This document shows, piece after piece, positions 3,342-10,716 of a stretch of DNA of 64,000 nt. Within the stretch, counting starts at the first letter, position 1; each line of letters begins with the position of its first letter. Where the stretch lies: positions 21,242 to 85,241 of the forward strand of contig JAZQVN010000013.1 of NCBI GenBank assembly GCA_045631885.1, written 5' to 3'. Source of the stretch: Bacilli bacterium (GTDB lineage: Bacteria > Bacillota_I > Bacilli_A > RFN20 > CAG-826). The notes under the pieces are model-generated. The model searched no databases, was not told where the DNA came from, and saw only the letters and a program-made list of their open reading frames with translations. Position numbers and translations under genes: made by a program.

Positions 3342-4076
3342 CTATTCTTTTGGTTCTTCAGCGGCTGGAGCAGCTTCAACTGGAGCTTCTTCAACGACTG
3401 GCGCTGGAGTGCGATCGATTAAGGTCTTTGCTTGTTCTGGATGTTTGACTTCCTTAACAGCGCTTCTAATTGTCACGATGGACTTCTTAGGACCTGGGAT
3501 ACCACCTTTAATTAAGATGTAGCCTTTTTCCGCGTTGACATCGACAACTAAGAGGTTGAGGATTGTCACGGATTCATTTCCCCAGTGACCAGACATGTGT
3601 TTGCCTGGCATAACGCCGTGGTTGTAACGACCATTGTTAGCGAAGGTACCTTGACCTCTGTGGTAACCTGAACCATGGCCTTTTGGACCGATGTGTTGGT
3701 TCCATCTCTTAATAACGCCACTATAGCCATGACCTTTTCCTGTACCGATGACATCGACGATATCACCTTTCTTGAAGAGGTCAGCGGTGATTAAGTCACC
3801 TAATTTGTAGTTGGCCATTTCGTCACCACGTAATTCTTTACTAACTTCATGTGGAACTGTGCCGGCTTTCTTAGCAATACCTAATTCTGGTTTGTTAGCG
3901 CGGCTTTCTTTCTTTTCTTCGTAGCCAACTTGAACTGCCACATAACCGTCTTTTTCGACTGTCTTAACTTGTGTGACAACGTTTGGTAAGACTTCAACGA
4001 CGGTAACTGGATACATGGTGCCATCTTCAGCGAAGACTTCTGTCATGCCCATTTTACGACCTAAAATTGCTTTCAT
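3342..4076 (-). CDS. rplC: 50S ribosomal protein L3 with an Ala/Pro/Glu-rich C-terminal tail
   Basis: MKAILGRKMGMTEVF...GKGHGYSGVIKRWNQH is the L3 signature. The tail APVVEEAPVEAAPAAEEPKE is a lineage-typical extension. Confidence 0.9.
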   Translation of the reverse strand: MKAILGRKMGMTEVFAEDGTMYPVTVVEVLPNVVTQVKTVEKDGYVAVQVGYEEKKESRANKPELGIAKKAGTVPHEVSKELRGDEMANYKLGDLITADLFKKGDIVDVIGTGKGHGYSGVIKRWNQHIGPKGHGSGYHRGQGTFANNGRYNHGVMPGKHMSGHWGNESVTILNLLVVDVNAEKGYILIKGGIPGPKKSIVTIRSAVKEVKHPEQAKTLIDRTPAPVVEEAPVEAAPAAEEPKE

Positions 4077-4090
4077 TTCGTCTTACCTCC

Positions 4091-4402
4091 TTATAATTTG
4101 AATTCGATATCAACTCCTGCTGCGAGATCGAGATTCTTGAGAGCATCAATTGTCTCTTTCTTTGGATTTAAGATATCGATGATACGTTTGTGTGTTCTGA
4201 TTTCGAATTGTTCACGGGAATCCTTATATTTGTGAACAGCTCTTAAAATCGTATAAACTTGTTTTTCCGTGGGTAGCGGAATAGGACCCACAACGGTAGC
4301 CCCAGTCTTTTTCGCTGCTGCGACGATCTTTTCAGCGGCAACATCTAAGTTGACGTGATCGTAAGCTTGTAAGCGAACCCTGATTTTGGTAGCTTTTGCC
4401 AT
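4091..4402 (-). CDS. rpsJ: 30S ribosomal protein S10
   Basis: [16 protein letters not shown]...[35 protein letters not shown] is the S10 signature. Confidence 0.95.
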
Positions 4403-4530
4403 GAATTGAATTTCCTCCTATCACTTTCAGGCTTTGACTTGTCTCTCTACTTGCGAATTACCTGATGACACCTTCATGACAACGCTTGTGGGTGTATCAG
4501 CAACCTCGCACATCAACGCGAGCAGTCAAC
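4403..4530 (-). promoter_or_regulatory. 5' untranslated leader of the S10 operon with predicted stem-loops
   Basis: The leader runs from the predicted TSS to the rpsJ RBS. It contains the hairpin CUCGC-GUUGAUGU-GCGAG and a direct TGTCAT repeat. It is a plausible site for autogenous r-protein control. Confidence 0.4.
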
Positions 4531-4536
4531 GTTCAA

Positions 4537-4565
4537 ATCATACCCCCTTCGCGTATATGTGTCAA
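4537..4565 (-). promoter_or_regulatory. Sigma-A type promoter of the S10 operon (-35 TTGACA, 17-nt spacer, -10 TATGAT)
   Basis: Reading the minus strand gives TTGACA-catatacgcgaaggggg-TATGAT. The hexamers map to plus coordinates 4565..4560 and 4542..4537. The promoter lies about 130 nt upstream of the rpsJ ATG. Confidence 0.6.
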
Positions 4566-4869
4566 TAATATTTTTAAATAAATTAAAAGAAAAGAAATTG
4601 GGCACGTAAAATAACTATCGATAATTCGGTAATTTTTGCCTAAAAATATGGAGAGGAAACAACTTTTTACTAACAAAAAACCGATTTTTTTCGCTCATTT
4701 TTTGATATTTTTGACCTAAAAATCAGCAAGAAAAAGGCGATTAAAAAATGGTGATTTCCTATATATACTTAATTATCTTCTAAAACGTATGTTTATCAGG
4801 AAAATACCATATTTAATGCTTTGCATTATTTTGTGGATTTATTTTGTGTTTTGTTTTACAATAATTTTG

Positions 4870-5217
4870 TTCAACAAGCATAGCCTTTTAAACGCGCCAG
4901 CAGCCCAAGAATGAAATACTTCTAGAGTAGGCTCCGACTGACTAAAACGTGAGAAAGTGACTAATTTATGAACTGGTAAGATGGATGTGTTAGGTCTTAC
5001 CAATGTGGAAAGTATCGCCCAGCGTGATATGCGGGCATAAGTAGAAGGGGTCGCATGGTAGACGCTCTTATGTTCAAGATGATCACCGCGCTCCACACAG
5101 TTTTATCTGAGCATGTGGCCATCACGAGGATGATGAAACACCAGTAGCTATAGTTGATAGGGATATCTTCTGTTAGTTACACTAGGTGTTTTCATTATGG
5201 TGATGGCTTTTATTATC
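4870..5217 (+). ncRNA. Candidate structured non-coding RNA of about 350 nt with unknown family. It is GC-enriched and ends in a long terminator hairpin.
   Basis: Region 4890-5110 is about 48% GC against about 25% in the flanking intergenic DNA. It contains several stems, for example GGTAAGA-13nt-TCTTACC. A long imperfect hairpin spans 5117-5210, with outer stem GCCATCAC/GTGATGGC and inner arms GATGAAACACC/GGTGTTTTCATT, and is followed by TTTTATT. A possible -10 TACAAT sits at 4857-4862. No convincing ORF is present. Confidence 0.3.
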
Positions 5218-5408
5218 TCCTTTTGAGAACACTATGTTGTTCGAGTTTAAGAAAGGAGATTTTTTAATGGAAAGAGTGACCATAAATAACAGTGGTTAAT
5301 TAATGCCGAAGCAGGATTAATTTGGCAGTTTTATACAATGTATAAATTTTAAAAATGGATTAGCAACAACTTGTTGCAGAATCAACCGATAAATAAGGAG
5401 GATAGCTA

Positions 5409-7016
5409 TTGAGAGAAGCATTACGAAAACTAGGGTTAAACAACCGCTACAGATTTGAAGCCGTATTTTCCCGATTTGCCACTACACAAGAACATATTGA
5501 AGGGAAAGAGGCAATTCTTCTATTGGATGTAAAAAGAGGAAACAAATTAGTAGCCAACCATCTTTGGTTATGTAGAATCCAAGAATTCAAAAAACTGAAT
5601 TTGAAAGAGGGAGATATAGTCTCATTCACAGCCCGAATCAATATGTATAGAAGATTCAAAAATCAAAGAAAACTAATCGATTTTGGATTATCAAATCCAA
5701 TGCATGTTTATAAAGTCAACAAGGAGGAAATTACAATGACTGAAAACACAAACTTAGTCACAAAAGTATACGTGACAAACAAATTTAAGCTAGAGGTAAA
5801 TTTAGATCTACAAGAGAGAGAATTTTGGCTTTCCCAAGAAGAACTAAGCTTAATTTTTGATACGCCATCAAAGACAATTTACAGAATTCTTTTGGAAATA
5901 GAAAAAAGCGTAAAATCTACCCTACAGACCCCAAAAATGAGAATTATGAAAAATGGAAGGAAGGTTAATGCTTATAGTTCATATTTCTTCAAAGAACTAA
6001 ACAAGAGATTTGCAAATGAAATAAGCAGAGATTTTGAAAACTGGGTAAAATTGATATTTCAAACTGAAGAATTAAATTCATACGAAATAGTTACATTTAA
6101 TCAAGATAATTTATCGCTTGATATTCGCATTTCTCCAGATCATGAAACGGTTTGGATGAACCAAGATGAAATTGCTGAATTGTTCGGAACAGTAAGAACA
6201 AATATAACCACTCACATTAACAATATTTTTGAACAAAGTGAGTTAGAAAAAGTTTCAGTTCGTCAATTTTTCTTACAAACTGGAAACGACGGAAAACAAT
6301 ATGAGGTCGAATACTACAATTTGGATATGATTTTGTCCATTGGCTATCGTGTTAATTCAAAACGCGGTATCGCATTTAGAAAATGGGCAAATCAAATCTT
6401 GAAAGACTATTTAATTAAAGGTTACGCGCTCAATGAAAAGAGATTGACTTCACTTGGCAAAACAGTTGAAATCCAAAACAAAATGCTAGCCAGTTCTCTT
6501 GGTGTTGATTATCAAGAGCTTTCAAATGTAATTGGCGAATACACTCGAGCTTTAAATCTTTTGGATGACTATGATCATCAAGAACTAGTTAAGCCAAGTG
6601 GGAACAAAACAACTTATCAATTAACTTATGAAGATGCTAGAAACATTATCAATAAAATGGAATTCAACAAAACATCCGATTTATTTGGTAGAGAAAAGGA
6701 AGAAGGGAAACTAGAAGGCATTTTAGCAGTCGTCCATCAATTTGTATTTGGACAAGAAGTTTATCCATCATTGGAAGAAAAAGCAGCCCATCTACTTTAC
6801 TTCCTAGTCAAAGACCATCCATTCTATGATGGTTGTAAAAGAATAGCGGCGACACTATTCCTTGAATTTTTAAATAGAAACGGCGCACTAGTCAAAAATG
6901 GACAATTAACCATTTCTAACGATGCATTAGTAGCAATCACATTATTGACTGCAGAAAGTAATCCTGATGAAATGGAAATTATCGTATCAGTAATTATGAA
7001 TCTCTTGGTTCATTAG
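5409..7016 (+). CDS. RhuM-family virulence-associated protein fused to a Fic/Doc domain, with a unique about 109-aa N-terminal extension (or an alternative start at 5736)
   Basis: ...IGYRVNSKRGIAFRKWANQILKDYLIKGY is the RhuM signature. The C-terminal ...HPFYDGCKR... is a Fic/Doc motif variant. A TTG start at 5409 has an AGGAGG RBS. An in-frame ATG at 5736 is preceded by a second strong AGGAGG with an 8-nt spacer. Confidence 0.8.
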   Translation: MREALRKLGLNNRYRFEAVFSRFATTQEHIEGKEAILLLDVKRGNKLVANHLWLCRIQEFKKLNLKEGDIVSFTARINMYRRFKNQRKLIDFGLSNPMHVYKVNKEEITMTENTNLVTKVYVTNKFKLEVNLDLQEREFWLSQEELSLIFDTPSKTIYRILLEIEKSVKSTLQTPKMRIMKNGRKVNAYSSYFFKELNKRFANEISRDFENWVKLIFQTEELNSYEIVTFNQDNLSLDIRISPDHETVWMNQDEIAELFGTVRTNITTHINNIFEQSELEKVSVRQFFLQTGNDGKQYEVEYYNLDMILSIGYRVNSKRGIAFRKWANQILKDYLIKGYALNEKRLTSLGKTVEIQNKMLASSLGVDYQELSNVIGEYTRALNLLDDYDHQELVKPSGNKTTYQLTYEDARNIINKMEFNKTSDLFGREKEEGKLEGILAVVHQFVFGQEVYPSLEEKAAHLLYFLVKDHPFYDGCKRIAATLFLEFLNRNGALVKNGQLTISNDALVAITLLTAESNPDEMEIIVSVIMNLLVH

Positions 7017-7028
7017 AAAAAGGGTGGC

Positions 7029-7664
7029 TTACTTGCCGCTCTTCTTTCTTAAATGGTCCTCATATGAATACCGACATCCACAATATTCTTGAAAATACAT
7101 TTCGTGTTCTCTAACTATCTTTAATGACTCTTCGTATCCGTTATTCTTTTTGAAATCCGCAGGGAGCCATTTTGTGTGTTTATGTTGCTCTTGTAATTCG
7201 TAGCCAATCTTGTTTAGCATCTGAGAATTCTTATATCTTGAAATACTCATCACAGTGCCAAAATAATCAAAACCATGTTCCTCTGCATAATCATATCCAA
7301 AGGTCAATCTTTTACGGTAACAAGCAAAGCATCTTTCGCCACCTTCTGGTATATCTTTAAGCGGTTCTAAATCTTTCATGTAGTTTAGATGATCGTATGG
7401 GAACTCAATGACTTTGATATCATCTCCAACTTCGGAAATGAATCTTTTGAGCTCTTCCTTCCTTCTGATATATTCCTCTTCAGGATAGATATTTGAGTTA
7501 TTGTAAATGATAGTTATATCAAAATAATCTTTAAGCTCTAAATGGGGAATGGTAAAACAAGGACCACAGCACGCGTGAATCAAAAGAGTGGGCTTTTTTC
7601 CACTATTTTTAATATTTTCAAGTAACTTTTGCAGTTCTTTTTGATAATTTATCTTATTTTCCAT
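7029..7664 (-). CDS. queH: Epoxyqueuosine reductase QueH (DUF208 family)
   Basis: [36 protein letters not shown] matches the QueH N-terminus, and the downstream CxxC and CGC cysteines are present. The longer ORF extends to 7685. Confidence 0.8.
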
Positions 7665-8684
7665 AAATAAACATTGAATCTCCAAAAGAGAAGAATCGGT
7701 ATTTTTCTTCCACCGCGTGCTTATAAACTTCTAAGGTGAATTCGCGATCCATAAAGGCAGACACAAGCATAATTAAAGTTGACTTTGGTAAATGGAAGTT
7801 TGTAATCAACGCATCTACCACTTTAAAAGTATATCCTGGTTCAATAAAGATGTTTGTGCTTTCTTTTGTAGGTTTAAAACAACCATATTTAGAATAGTTA
7901 GCTTCCAGGGTTCTAACACTCGTTGTTCCAATTGCAATTATTCTCTTGCCACCGGCTTTAGCGGCGTTCAATTTCTCAGCTGATTCTTCACTAATCTCAT
8001 ACACTTCAGAATGCATGACATGATCTTTTGTATCTTGAACTTTAACAGGTCTAAATGTTCCTAAACCAATATGCAAAGTGACATCAATTACCTCCACTCC
8101 CATGGCTTTGATTTTCTCAAATAATTCCGGAGTGAAATGGAAACCCGCTGTTGGTGCGGCTGCGCTTCCCTCATATTTCGCATAGACAGTTTGATATCTA
8201 TCGTTTGAACACAATTGTTTAGCAATATAAGGTGGCAGAGGCATCTTACCTAATTGATCTAACACCTCGAGGAAAATACCTTGATAATGCATTTTAACAA
8301 TTCGAATGCCTTCTTCTTTCTCTTCAATGACTTCGGCGATAAGTTTTCCTTCACCAAAATCCACTCTAGCGCCCACTTTTAATGATTTAGCGGGTCTAGT
8401 TAGACACTCCCAGTTATCACCATCTAATTGTTTCAATAACAATAGTTCGCAGTGTGCTCCAGTTTTCTCTTTAACACCCAGTAATCTAGCAGGGATAACT
8501 TTTGTGTTATTTCTCACTAAAACATCGCCAGGTTTTAAATACTCTAAAATATTAAAAAAGTTCCTATCTTCATAGGTCTTGTTTCCATAATTAATTGCTA
8601 ATAAGCGAGAGTGATCTCTTTTCTCACAAGGTTTTTGGGCAATTAATTCTTCCGGAAGATAAAAGTCAAATAGATTAATATCCA

Positions 8685-8685
<1 letters not shown>
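7654..8685 (-). CDS. queA: S-adenosylmethionine:tRNA ribosyltransferase-isomerase
   Basis: [26 protein letters not shown] is the QueA N-terminal signature. It is 343 aa long and lies upstream of queH. Confidence 0.9.

Positions 8686-10716
<2,031 letters not shown>

Follow-up and report, generated by a model that had tools for sequence, protein, structure and literature searches.

We analyzed a stretch of 64,000 nucleotides (nt) from a Bacilli bacterium (GenBank assembly GCA_045631885.1, contig JAZQVN010000013.1, positions 21,242 to 85,241 of the forward strand), which is referred to here as the window, and focused on a GC-enriched island upstream of a gene encoding a RhuM-Fic protein. A reading of the sequence alone, termed here the original prediction, had described the island (positions 4870 to 5217 of the window) as a structured non-coding RNA. 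Our analysis indicates that it is a real structured RNA that belongs to a known Rfam family, COG3943 RNA (RF02941), and not to a new class. Furthermore, the full-length COG3943 RNA is probably a cis-acting, riboswitch-like attenuator of about 340 nt, encoded on the plus strand, that has its own promoter and serves a downstream gene slot. The island lies in an AT-rich intergenic gap of 1006 nt between rpsJ and the open reading frame (ORF) of the RhuM-Fic protein. Its GC content is 43% over positions 4870 to 5217, as compared with 36% in the whole window and flanking values of 25% and 31%. The GC enrichment within AT-rich intergenic DNA was thus observed as predicted, whereas the proposed value of 48% was not; contents of 49 to 52% are reached only by 100-nt segments around positions 5000 to 5150.

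The family assignment is based on a cmscan search of Rfam 15, in which positions 5087 to 5189 of the plus strand matched RF02941 with 89.8 bits (gathering score, 71.8 bits; E = 4.5e-15). This was the sole above-threshold Rfam match across the 64-kb window. Model positions 1 to 108 were all aligned without truncation; a few pairs of the first hairpin and of the apical stem are non-canonical. The match is located upstream of a RhuM-family gene on the same strand, the ORF of which begins 220 nt past the match; between them lie a 10-codon ORF and then the Shine-Dalgarno (SD) sequence of the gene itself. The original prediction had called the family unknown and had named an Rfam assignment as an argument against novelty; in view of the match, "unknown" was wrong. 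In its statement that there is no T-box signature it was right, as a permissive search of positions 4400 to 5500 gave no T-box match at E values up to 10, nor any other Rfam family at 4870 to 5086. The host range reported for COG3943 RNAs is Firmicutes, and to our knowledge their function has not been studied. A literature search, which did not extend to the supplement of the 2017 survey cited next, found no paper that discusses this RNA. The motif was reported in a comparative survey (Weinberg et al. 2017, PMC5737381), the main text of which is silent on it.

Homologues were collected from several sources. When a genome collection was scanned with a pattern of the motif core, 7 of the 120 matches listed were real, and the rest were mostly chance matches in GC-rich genomes. 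These genome loci, at least 7 in number, belong to records titled Bacilli, Bacillales or Erysipelotrichaceae metagenome-assembled genomes. The RNA was also present on 50 metagenome contigs, many of which bear rumen-type sample names, and 15 out of 15 loci rechecked with cmscan scored above the Rfam threshold. Among the viral contigs of IMG/VR, the core pattern gave 9 matches, only one of which was a real COG3943 RNA (L128; labels of this kind denote individual loci), and a pattern of the 5' domain gave no match. No match to GenBank phages or PLSDB plasmids was obtained by blastn either. Since the viral contigs contained a single real copy, COG3943 RNA is not typically phage-borne.

In total, 45 distinct full-length sequences, derived from rumen or gut Bacilli and Erysipelotrichaceae, were aligned, and an anchor-delimited block alignment was used beside a MAFFT alignment (A1). 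Because A1 was out of register for helix P1 and for the hairpin containing the SD (helices 1, 2, 9, and 10), the block alignment or per-sequence folds were used for these elements. The RNA of the window shares 46 to 64% identity with the other members. Covariation analysis, proposed as a check in the original prediction, corroborated the structure: across the 45 homologues, 87.6% of the alignment cells were paired, versus 38 to 50% in slid controls. Changes on both sides of a pair were found in 306 cells, versus 113 ± 11 in shuffled alignments, and none of 500 shuffles reached the observed value. About 60 junction and loop positions are invariant. G-U pairs are frequent, as exemplified by helix P4 (UG:34, GU:15), and are compatible only with the plus strand, from which the RNA would therefore be read. 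These comparative data agree with the predicted structured non-coding RNA of about 340 to 350 nt on this strand. A search for a conserved ORF on both strands revealed none, and a protein-coding explanation was ruled out for either strand. The only ORF of the island, with 85 amino acids on the minus strand, had been judged not protein-like, and this was borne out: it is not conserved, and the stop-free stretches of the homologues shrink to 37 to 45 codons in every frame.

At the 5' end, the -10 box TACAAT proposed by the original prediction was confirmed (Table 1). In 46 of 48 aligned homologues, a TATAAT-like hexamer precedes the conserved G at the start of P1 by a distance of precisely 6 nt, the exceptions being L155 and L159. 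The RNA would thus begin right after this box and end in a stem followed by a U-tract, as had been anticipated. P1, which closes a 5' subdomain, can form in 32 to 43 of the 45 sequences, depending on the pair, and shows several pair types per position in the block alignment; in the window, its two innermost positions (C4879/A4964 and A4880/A4963) are unpaired. The interior of this subdomain (4881 to 4962) is variable, with at least four different architectures. That of the window is the variant with a AGAAUGAAAUACUUCU hairpin at 4908 to 4923, and RNAalifold applied to sequences of this type detected two short helices only, so that the interior is partly resolved. The adjacent hairpin P4 is much more uniform, with 97% of its cells paired and both sides changed in 9 out of 9 pairs; its loop GUGUUAGG is invariant (loop bases G119 to G125 in the numbering of A1).

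The 5' domain is connected to the Rfam part by a long-range helix, H5. It pairs in 45 out of 45 sequences; one of its positions has UA:29/CG:15/GC:1, and a second one has GC:44/AU:1. When 53 loci were compared, all 53 were complementary at each of the six pairs. In L128, the strands read UAGGGA/UCCCUA. The structure line of Rfam shows the stretch that forms the 3' strand of H5 as unpaired. Because H5 ties this stretch to the 5' domain, the catalogued motif is the 3' portion of a more extensive fold. Of 55 loci with the Rfam core, 53 also had the 5' domain. Between the two strands of H5 lie a near-invariant junction strand and the variable hairpin P6, the stems of which covary within a subgroup of 16 members with a GGUCGY apex. 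In L142, P6 is cut to a 4-bp hairpin, and we therefore consider it a peripheral element.

RF02941 covers about 100 of the approximately 345 nt, corresponding to the 3' third only. The Rfam model consists of three hairpins and leaves its first 11 positions unpaired, whereas these positions take part in a covarying helix here. It lacks the conserved 5' domain of about 220 nt, and it ends before the 3' strand of the terminator, the U-tract, and the SD-masking hairpin described below. The genes behind the RNA go beyond COG3943. As judged by these comparisons, the present analysis extends COG3943 RNA roughly threefold and adds a testable expression platform. About two thirds of the conserved RNA, including the helix that anchors the known part, has been unmodelled so far, and structural studies or ligand screens that start from the 108-nt model would be done with a truncated RNA.

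The 3' part contains two helices, P2 and a terminator-like stem, that are mutually exclusive because both use the same 5' strand. P2 is paired in all homologues (Table 1), and the terminator-like stem is 96.7% paired (AU:29/GC:13/GU:3). The stem is followed by at least 5 U within the next 8 nt in 45 of 45 homologues. Both helices covary and are maintained by selection. In the window, the predicted energy of the terminator fold is -42.3 kcal/mol versus -27.9 kcal/mol when P2 is forced, a gap of approximately 14 kcal/mol. The long interrupted hairpin and the subsequent TTTTATTAT (5208 to 5216) had been recognized in the original prediction, with motif coordinates that were shifted by 1 to 3 nt: the outer-stem arms GCCATCAC and GTGATGGC are found at 5118 to 5125 and 5200 to 5207, and not at 5117 to 5124 and 5203 to 5210, and the inner arms lie at 5132 to 5142 and 5185 to 5196. 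In addition, GUGUU occurs twice in the RNA of the window, in the P4 loop (4987 to 4991) and in the 3' strand of P3 (5186 to 5190), as does ACAC(C), in the 5' strand of P3 (5138 to 5142) and past the anti-SD (5229 to 5233). This duplication is a hint that a concerted alternative fold might form; it is beyond the reach of a covariation test, because all four copies are essentially invariant.

The original prediction had the element end at the terminator and overlooked that the leader continues into a hairpin, formed by an anti-SD and an SD, and to an AUG at position 5267. Complete pairing of the SD core was predicted by the minimum-energy folds of 42 out of 45 homologues (mean z = -3.2; -15.2 kcal/mol in the window). 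The SD is located 6 nt before the AUG, and in many cases the A-rich spacer is additionally paired with the U-tract. The anti-SD, inner hairpin, SD, and AUG keep their spacing and pairing past the terminator in 42 of the 45 homologues, whatever gene follows. The equivalent AUG starts a full gene in at least 40 homologues. Exceptions are the window and the loci with a brnT-brnA insertion. In the window the leader is intact, yet its AUG opens only 10 codons, and the leader can therefore affect the RhuM-Fic gene, which starts 142 nt past this AUG, only via read-through; direct SD masking would in this case concern the vestigial 10-codon ORF. A further strand between the anti-SD and the SD could pair with GGUGUUUUC. 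For this GGUGUUUUC/GAGGACACC helix, 95.3% of the cells were pair-compatible, versus 48 to 62% in slid controls, and no changes on both sides were seen. The data are compatible with this alternative helix and do not prove it; as the 5' strand (GGUGUUUUC) is invariant, covariation cannot provide such proof.

Taken together, these features are best explained by an attenuator that is OFF by default. The sensing part would comprise P1, P4 with its GUGUUAGG loop, H5, P2, P3, and the invariant junctions. The strand GCCAUC(AC) would pair either with its local partner to form P2 or with its distal partner to form the terminator-like stem that abuts the U-tract. Because the terminator fold is far more stable than the P2 fold, the default state is expected to be premature termination near positions 5211 to 5216. 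A factor that stabilizes the P2-containing fold, which may be a small molecule, a protein or an RNA, would allow read-through, and leader and gene would then be part of the same transcript. In this read-through RNA, the U-tract and the anti-SD would pair with the SD and the spacer of the first downstream frame, which would constitute a second OFF layer. The original prediction had offered an independent small RNA (sRNA) and a long attenuating leader as alternatives, and the comparative data favor the leader.

Several observations weigh against the attenuator. The terminator-like hairpin is not compact, with an 8-bp base that surrounds about 75 nt. A standard terminator scan called nothing in the leader of the window, since its loop limit is 3 to 8 nt and the loop of this hairpin is far larger; of the intrinsic terminator predicted originally, the conserved stem and U-tract are thus supported, whereas the consensus scan is not in its favor. 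The folding energy of positions 4865 to 5225 was unremarkable (z = -0.96), and 16 of 100 shuffled sequences folded equally well. Even when P2 and P3 are formed and read-through occurs, the prediction is that the SD stays masked, and the model does not explain how translation would be turned on. No ligand is suggested by the gene context. Rfam types RF02941 as "Gene; sRNA". Finally, the RNA of L128 (IMG/VR, 9798 to 10150), which is the sole copy found on a contig predicted to be viral, possesses the full 5' domain. It is followed by a second, compact terminator, CCCTAGAAATAGGGCTTTTT, in place of an anti-SD, an SD, and a gene, which fits a free-standing RNA.

The Rfam type and the L128 RNA are also in line with a different explanation, namely, that COG3943 RNA is a free-standing, trans-acting sRNA of about 340 nt with its own terminator, and that its proximity to RhuM-type genes is due to co-mobility or a shared island and not to their regulation by the RNA. 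The conserved promoter of its own, the stem and U-tract in 45 of 45 homologues, and the fact that neither the window nor the loci with brnT-brnA insertions have a real gene that uses the leader AUG would agree with such an RNA. Yet the SD platform conserved past the terminator in 42 of 45 homologues is then left unexplained, and the competition between P2 and the terminator stem, both of which covary, corresponds to the design of an attenuator. Trans and cis roles are, moreover, not mutually exclusive. We consider the free-standing sRNA unlikely.

The OFF state, which is strongly favored energetically, and the lack of a ligand that can be proposed would also be expected if the leader were a passive insulator or damper. 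Such a leader would sense nothing, hold the expression of a toxic cargo constitutively low and stabilize the 5' end of the mRNA, and its conservation would reflect the recent spread of a mobile module; that both the habitat and the clade of the homologues are narrow (rumen and gut Bacilli) is in accordance with such a spread. The sequences have diverged, however, to the 46 to 64% identity stated above, and at this divergence some 60 junction and loop positions are invariant and the helices contain compensatory changes. A 220-nt 5' domain with a long-range helix and two covarying, competing helices would be superfluous in a damper, which we regard as improbable.

The genes that follow the leader differ between loci. 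At the leader AUG, we found RhuM-Fic at approximately 21 loci, a DUF1016_N protein with a YhcG_C PDDEXK domain at 8, and a DUF4314 mini-protein at approximately 7; further cargo consists of two families of about 110 to 135 amino acids without a Pfam match. At some loci there is no gene at the AUG and a brnT-brnA module is inserted instead, directly after the leader SD in L154, L158, L163/L169, and L175; in L161, the module follows RhuM. The inserted module (BrnT, PF04365, 5e-30) is preceded by GTAATTAC operator-like palindromes and its own -10-like box. PADLOC classified RhuM-Fic proteins as PDC-S23/S05, with the protein of the window matching PDC-S23 (9.4e-124), and DUF1016 proteins as PDC-S02. 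We take PDC to stand for "phage defence candidates" in PADLOC naming, which is a label and not an experimental proof.

Leaders that are 93 to 97% identical precede RhuM and DUF1016, RhuM and a 108-amino-acid protein, and DUF4314 and RhuM. Such an exchange was found at one and the same chromosomal slot, which contains RhuM in L022 (RNA at about 3548 to 3935) and L143 (1698 to 2083) and DUF1016/YhcG in L088 (3297 to 3682) and L103 (6797 to 7176). The order at this slot is a 114-amino-acid gene, the RNA, the cargo, a terminator, and a tRNA cluster, and leader identity was 94 to 97% in the pairs compared (L022 with L088 and L022 with L103). According to the 3' flanks of L022, L143, and L088, the swapped segment extends from the leader AUG up to a terminator hairpin that these loci have in common, AAAACCCCTCA...TGAGGGGTT, before the tRNA cluster; L103 is cut inside the cargo. 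The type of RNA variant does not follow the type of cargo. The module of RNA and cargo is found in ordinary chromosomal neighborhoods, often beside tRNA genes: cmscan detected tRNA genes within a few hundred nt of it in L022, L088, L134, L171, L153, L148, and L147, and the flank of L143 is identical in sequence to the tRNA flank of L022 and L088. The ORF lists of the loci with RNA and cargo contained no integrase.

The nature of this cargo raises the possibility of a type III-like RNA antitoxin, in which the terminated RNA would neutralize the downstream toxin and a leaky terminator would set the ratio of RNA to toxin. The layout of promoter, structured RNA, terminator, and potentially toxic gene (Fic/Doc-like or PDDEXK nuclease; the toxicity is predicted) is suggestive, and there is a precedent: RCd22, an abiF-motif RNA of Clostridioides difficile located upstream of an Abi gene, is a cis- and trans-acting antitoxin, and the reporting paper cites the 2017 motif survey (bioRxiv 10.1101/2025.04.15.648962). 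In contrast to what an antitoxin would lead one to expect, Tandem Repeats Finder returned no rows for positions 4700 to 5450 at a minimum score of 30. Furthermore, leaders of 93 to 97% identity stand before RhuM-Fic, DUF1016/YhcG, DUF4314, and proteins of unknown family, and the variant type of the RNA is independent of the cargo. With a leader this indifferent to its cargo, an RNA that inhibits a specific protein is not expected, and the antitoxin is to us the least probable of the explanations weighed here.

The attenuator shares with riboswitches and T-box leaders that act by transcription attenuation its own promoter, a large conserved fold, the competition between a helix of this fold and a terminator stem, and an SD-masking helix, and its size is in the range of T-box leaders. 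It differs from them in that it matches no T-box or riboswitch family at E values up to 10, in that its terminator is a long interrupted hairpin, and in that its genes are of an interchangeable defense or toxin type and not metabolic. ToxI is the RNA of a type III toxin-antitoxin system. With ToxI and RCd22, COG3943 RNA has in common a structured RNA directly upstream of a toxic defense gene (predicted to be toxic in the present case) and a terminator between both, whereas it lacks repeats, precedes many unrelated proteins, and masks an SD directly. In mRNAs of type I toxins, such as hok and tisB, a long structured 5' untranslated region silences toxin translation via sequestration of the SD. 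The likeness to these regions consists in the long structured leader and the sequestered SD of a potentially toxic gene; the COG3943 leader is far larger, has conserved junctions and no antisense partner that we could see, and its cargo are not small membrane peptides.

The alternative pairing of P2 and the terminator stem, together with SD masking, provides a clear and testable expression platform, and these results make COG3943 RNA, one of many orphan motifs, experimentally tractable. The leader is cargo-agnostic and heads exchangeable candidate defense or toxin genes, sometimes at the same chromosomal slot. We tentatively propose, as a possibility well below the attenuator itself in confidence, that a sensor RNA of T-box size, responsive to a ligand or a macromolecular partner, gates a swappable chromosomal slot that in gut Bacilli accommodates anti-phage or toxin effectors encoded by single genes, and that it thereby serves as a generic switch linking an infection or stress signal to immune genes. 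If the leader answers a signal, it would be a rare case in which immune effectors are gated at the RNA level; if there is no signal, it would still provide toxic genes with a compact and portable cassette that is OFF by default.

Table 1. Features of the COG3943 RNA leader and adjacent genes in the window
Feature	Position	Strand	Details
rpsJ	4091-4402	-	PF00338
-10 box TACAAT	4857-4862	+	Predicted start at G4869
5' subdomain closed by P1	4869-4973	+	P1: 4869-4872/4970-4973, 4876-4880/4963-4967
Hairpin P4	4974-4982/4994-5002	+	Loop GUGUUAGG at 4987-4994
Long-range helix H5	5004-5009/5092-5097	+	UGUGGA with UCCACA; covariation
Junction strand AAGUAUCGCCCA	5010-5021	+	Near-invariant in 45 homologues; no partner established
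Variable hairpin P6	5024-5028/5082-5086; 5035-5041/5067-5073; 5050-5052/5061-5063	+	Covariation in subgroup
Rfam part	5087-5189	+	H5 3' strand (5092-5097), hairpin (5098-5109), P2, P3
Conserved strand UGAGCAUGUGGCC	5108-5120	+	Homologue alignment
P2	5120-5124/5131-5135	+	100% paired; AU:29/GC:16, AU:24/CG:21
P3	5137-5142/5185-5190; 5144-5150/5174-5180	+	Upper stem: 6/7 pairs changed on both sides
Terminator-like element	5118-5216	+	GCCAUCAC (5118-5125) with GUGAUGGC (5200-5207); encloses P3
U-tract UUUUAUUAU	5208-5216	+	Directly after the terminator-like stem
SD-sequestering hairpin	5215-5260	+	Anti-SD AUCUCCUUU (5215-5223) with SD AAAGGAGAU (5252-5260); inner stem 5227-5230/5239-5242
Possible alternative strand GAGAACACU	5225-5233	+	Could pair with GGUGUUUUC (5185-5193); conserved form GAGGACACC
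10-codon ORF MERVTINNSG*	5267-5299	+	At the cargo-gene start of the homologues
RhuM-Fic ORF, 535 amino acids	5409-7016	+	PF13310 (2.2e-23), PF02661 (4.3e-11); TTG start; own SD AAGGAGG at 5395-5401

The RhuM-Fic protein of the window is a fusion of a homologue of a partner ORF, an additional winged helix-turn-helix domain, and RhuM-Fic. Its residues 1 to 105 resemble a separate ORF of 113 to 128 amino acids that follows RhuM in L162, L131, L150, L152, and L179 (29% identity, E = 6e-9), residues 121 to 241 duplicate the N-terminal domain of RhuM, and residues 223 to 534 correspond to RhuM and Fic, with 59% identity to the RhuM of L162. The latter locus is syntenic with the window and contains the S10 operon, the RNA, RhuM, the 128-amino-acid ORF, and queH-queA-tgt. 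An in-frame ATG with a good SD is present at position 5737 inside the RhuM-Fic ORF, and two products may be made from it.

Two of the loci analyzed are decayed. In L155 the 5' domain is degenerate, the -10 box is missing, and 27 codons are left of the DUF4314 gene, and in L160 RhuM is truncated at 80 amino acids. In the window, queuosine genes (7029 to 9845, minus strand) come right after RhuM-Fic; the first is queH (PF02677, 3.4e-56), and the next two were read as queA and tgt from the sequence. On the other side of the gap, positions 4434 to 4565 of the minus strand are likely the 5' untranslated region of the S10 operon, with a match to the S10-Clostridia leader at 4434 to 4524 that is below threshold (18.4 versus a gathering score of 35.1 bits), and a near-consensus promoter, TTGACA-17-TATGAT, is found on this side at 4565 to 4537 of the minus strand. 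In L103, a distance of about 900 nt separates the COG3943 RNA from an upstream cyclic di-GMP-I riboswitch (5828 to 5903, minus strand; 50.1 bits), which is unrelated to it.

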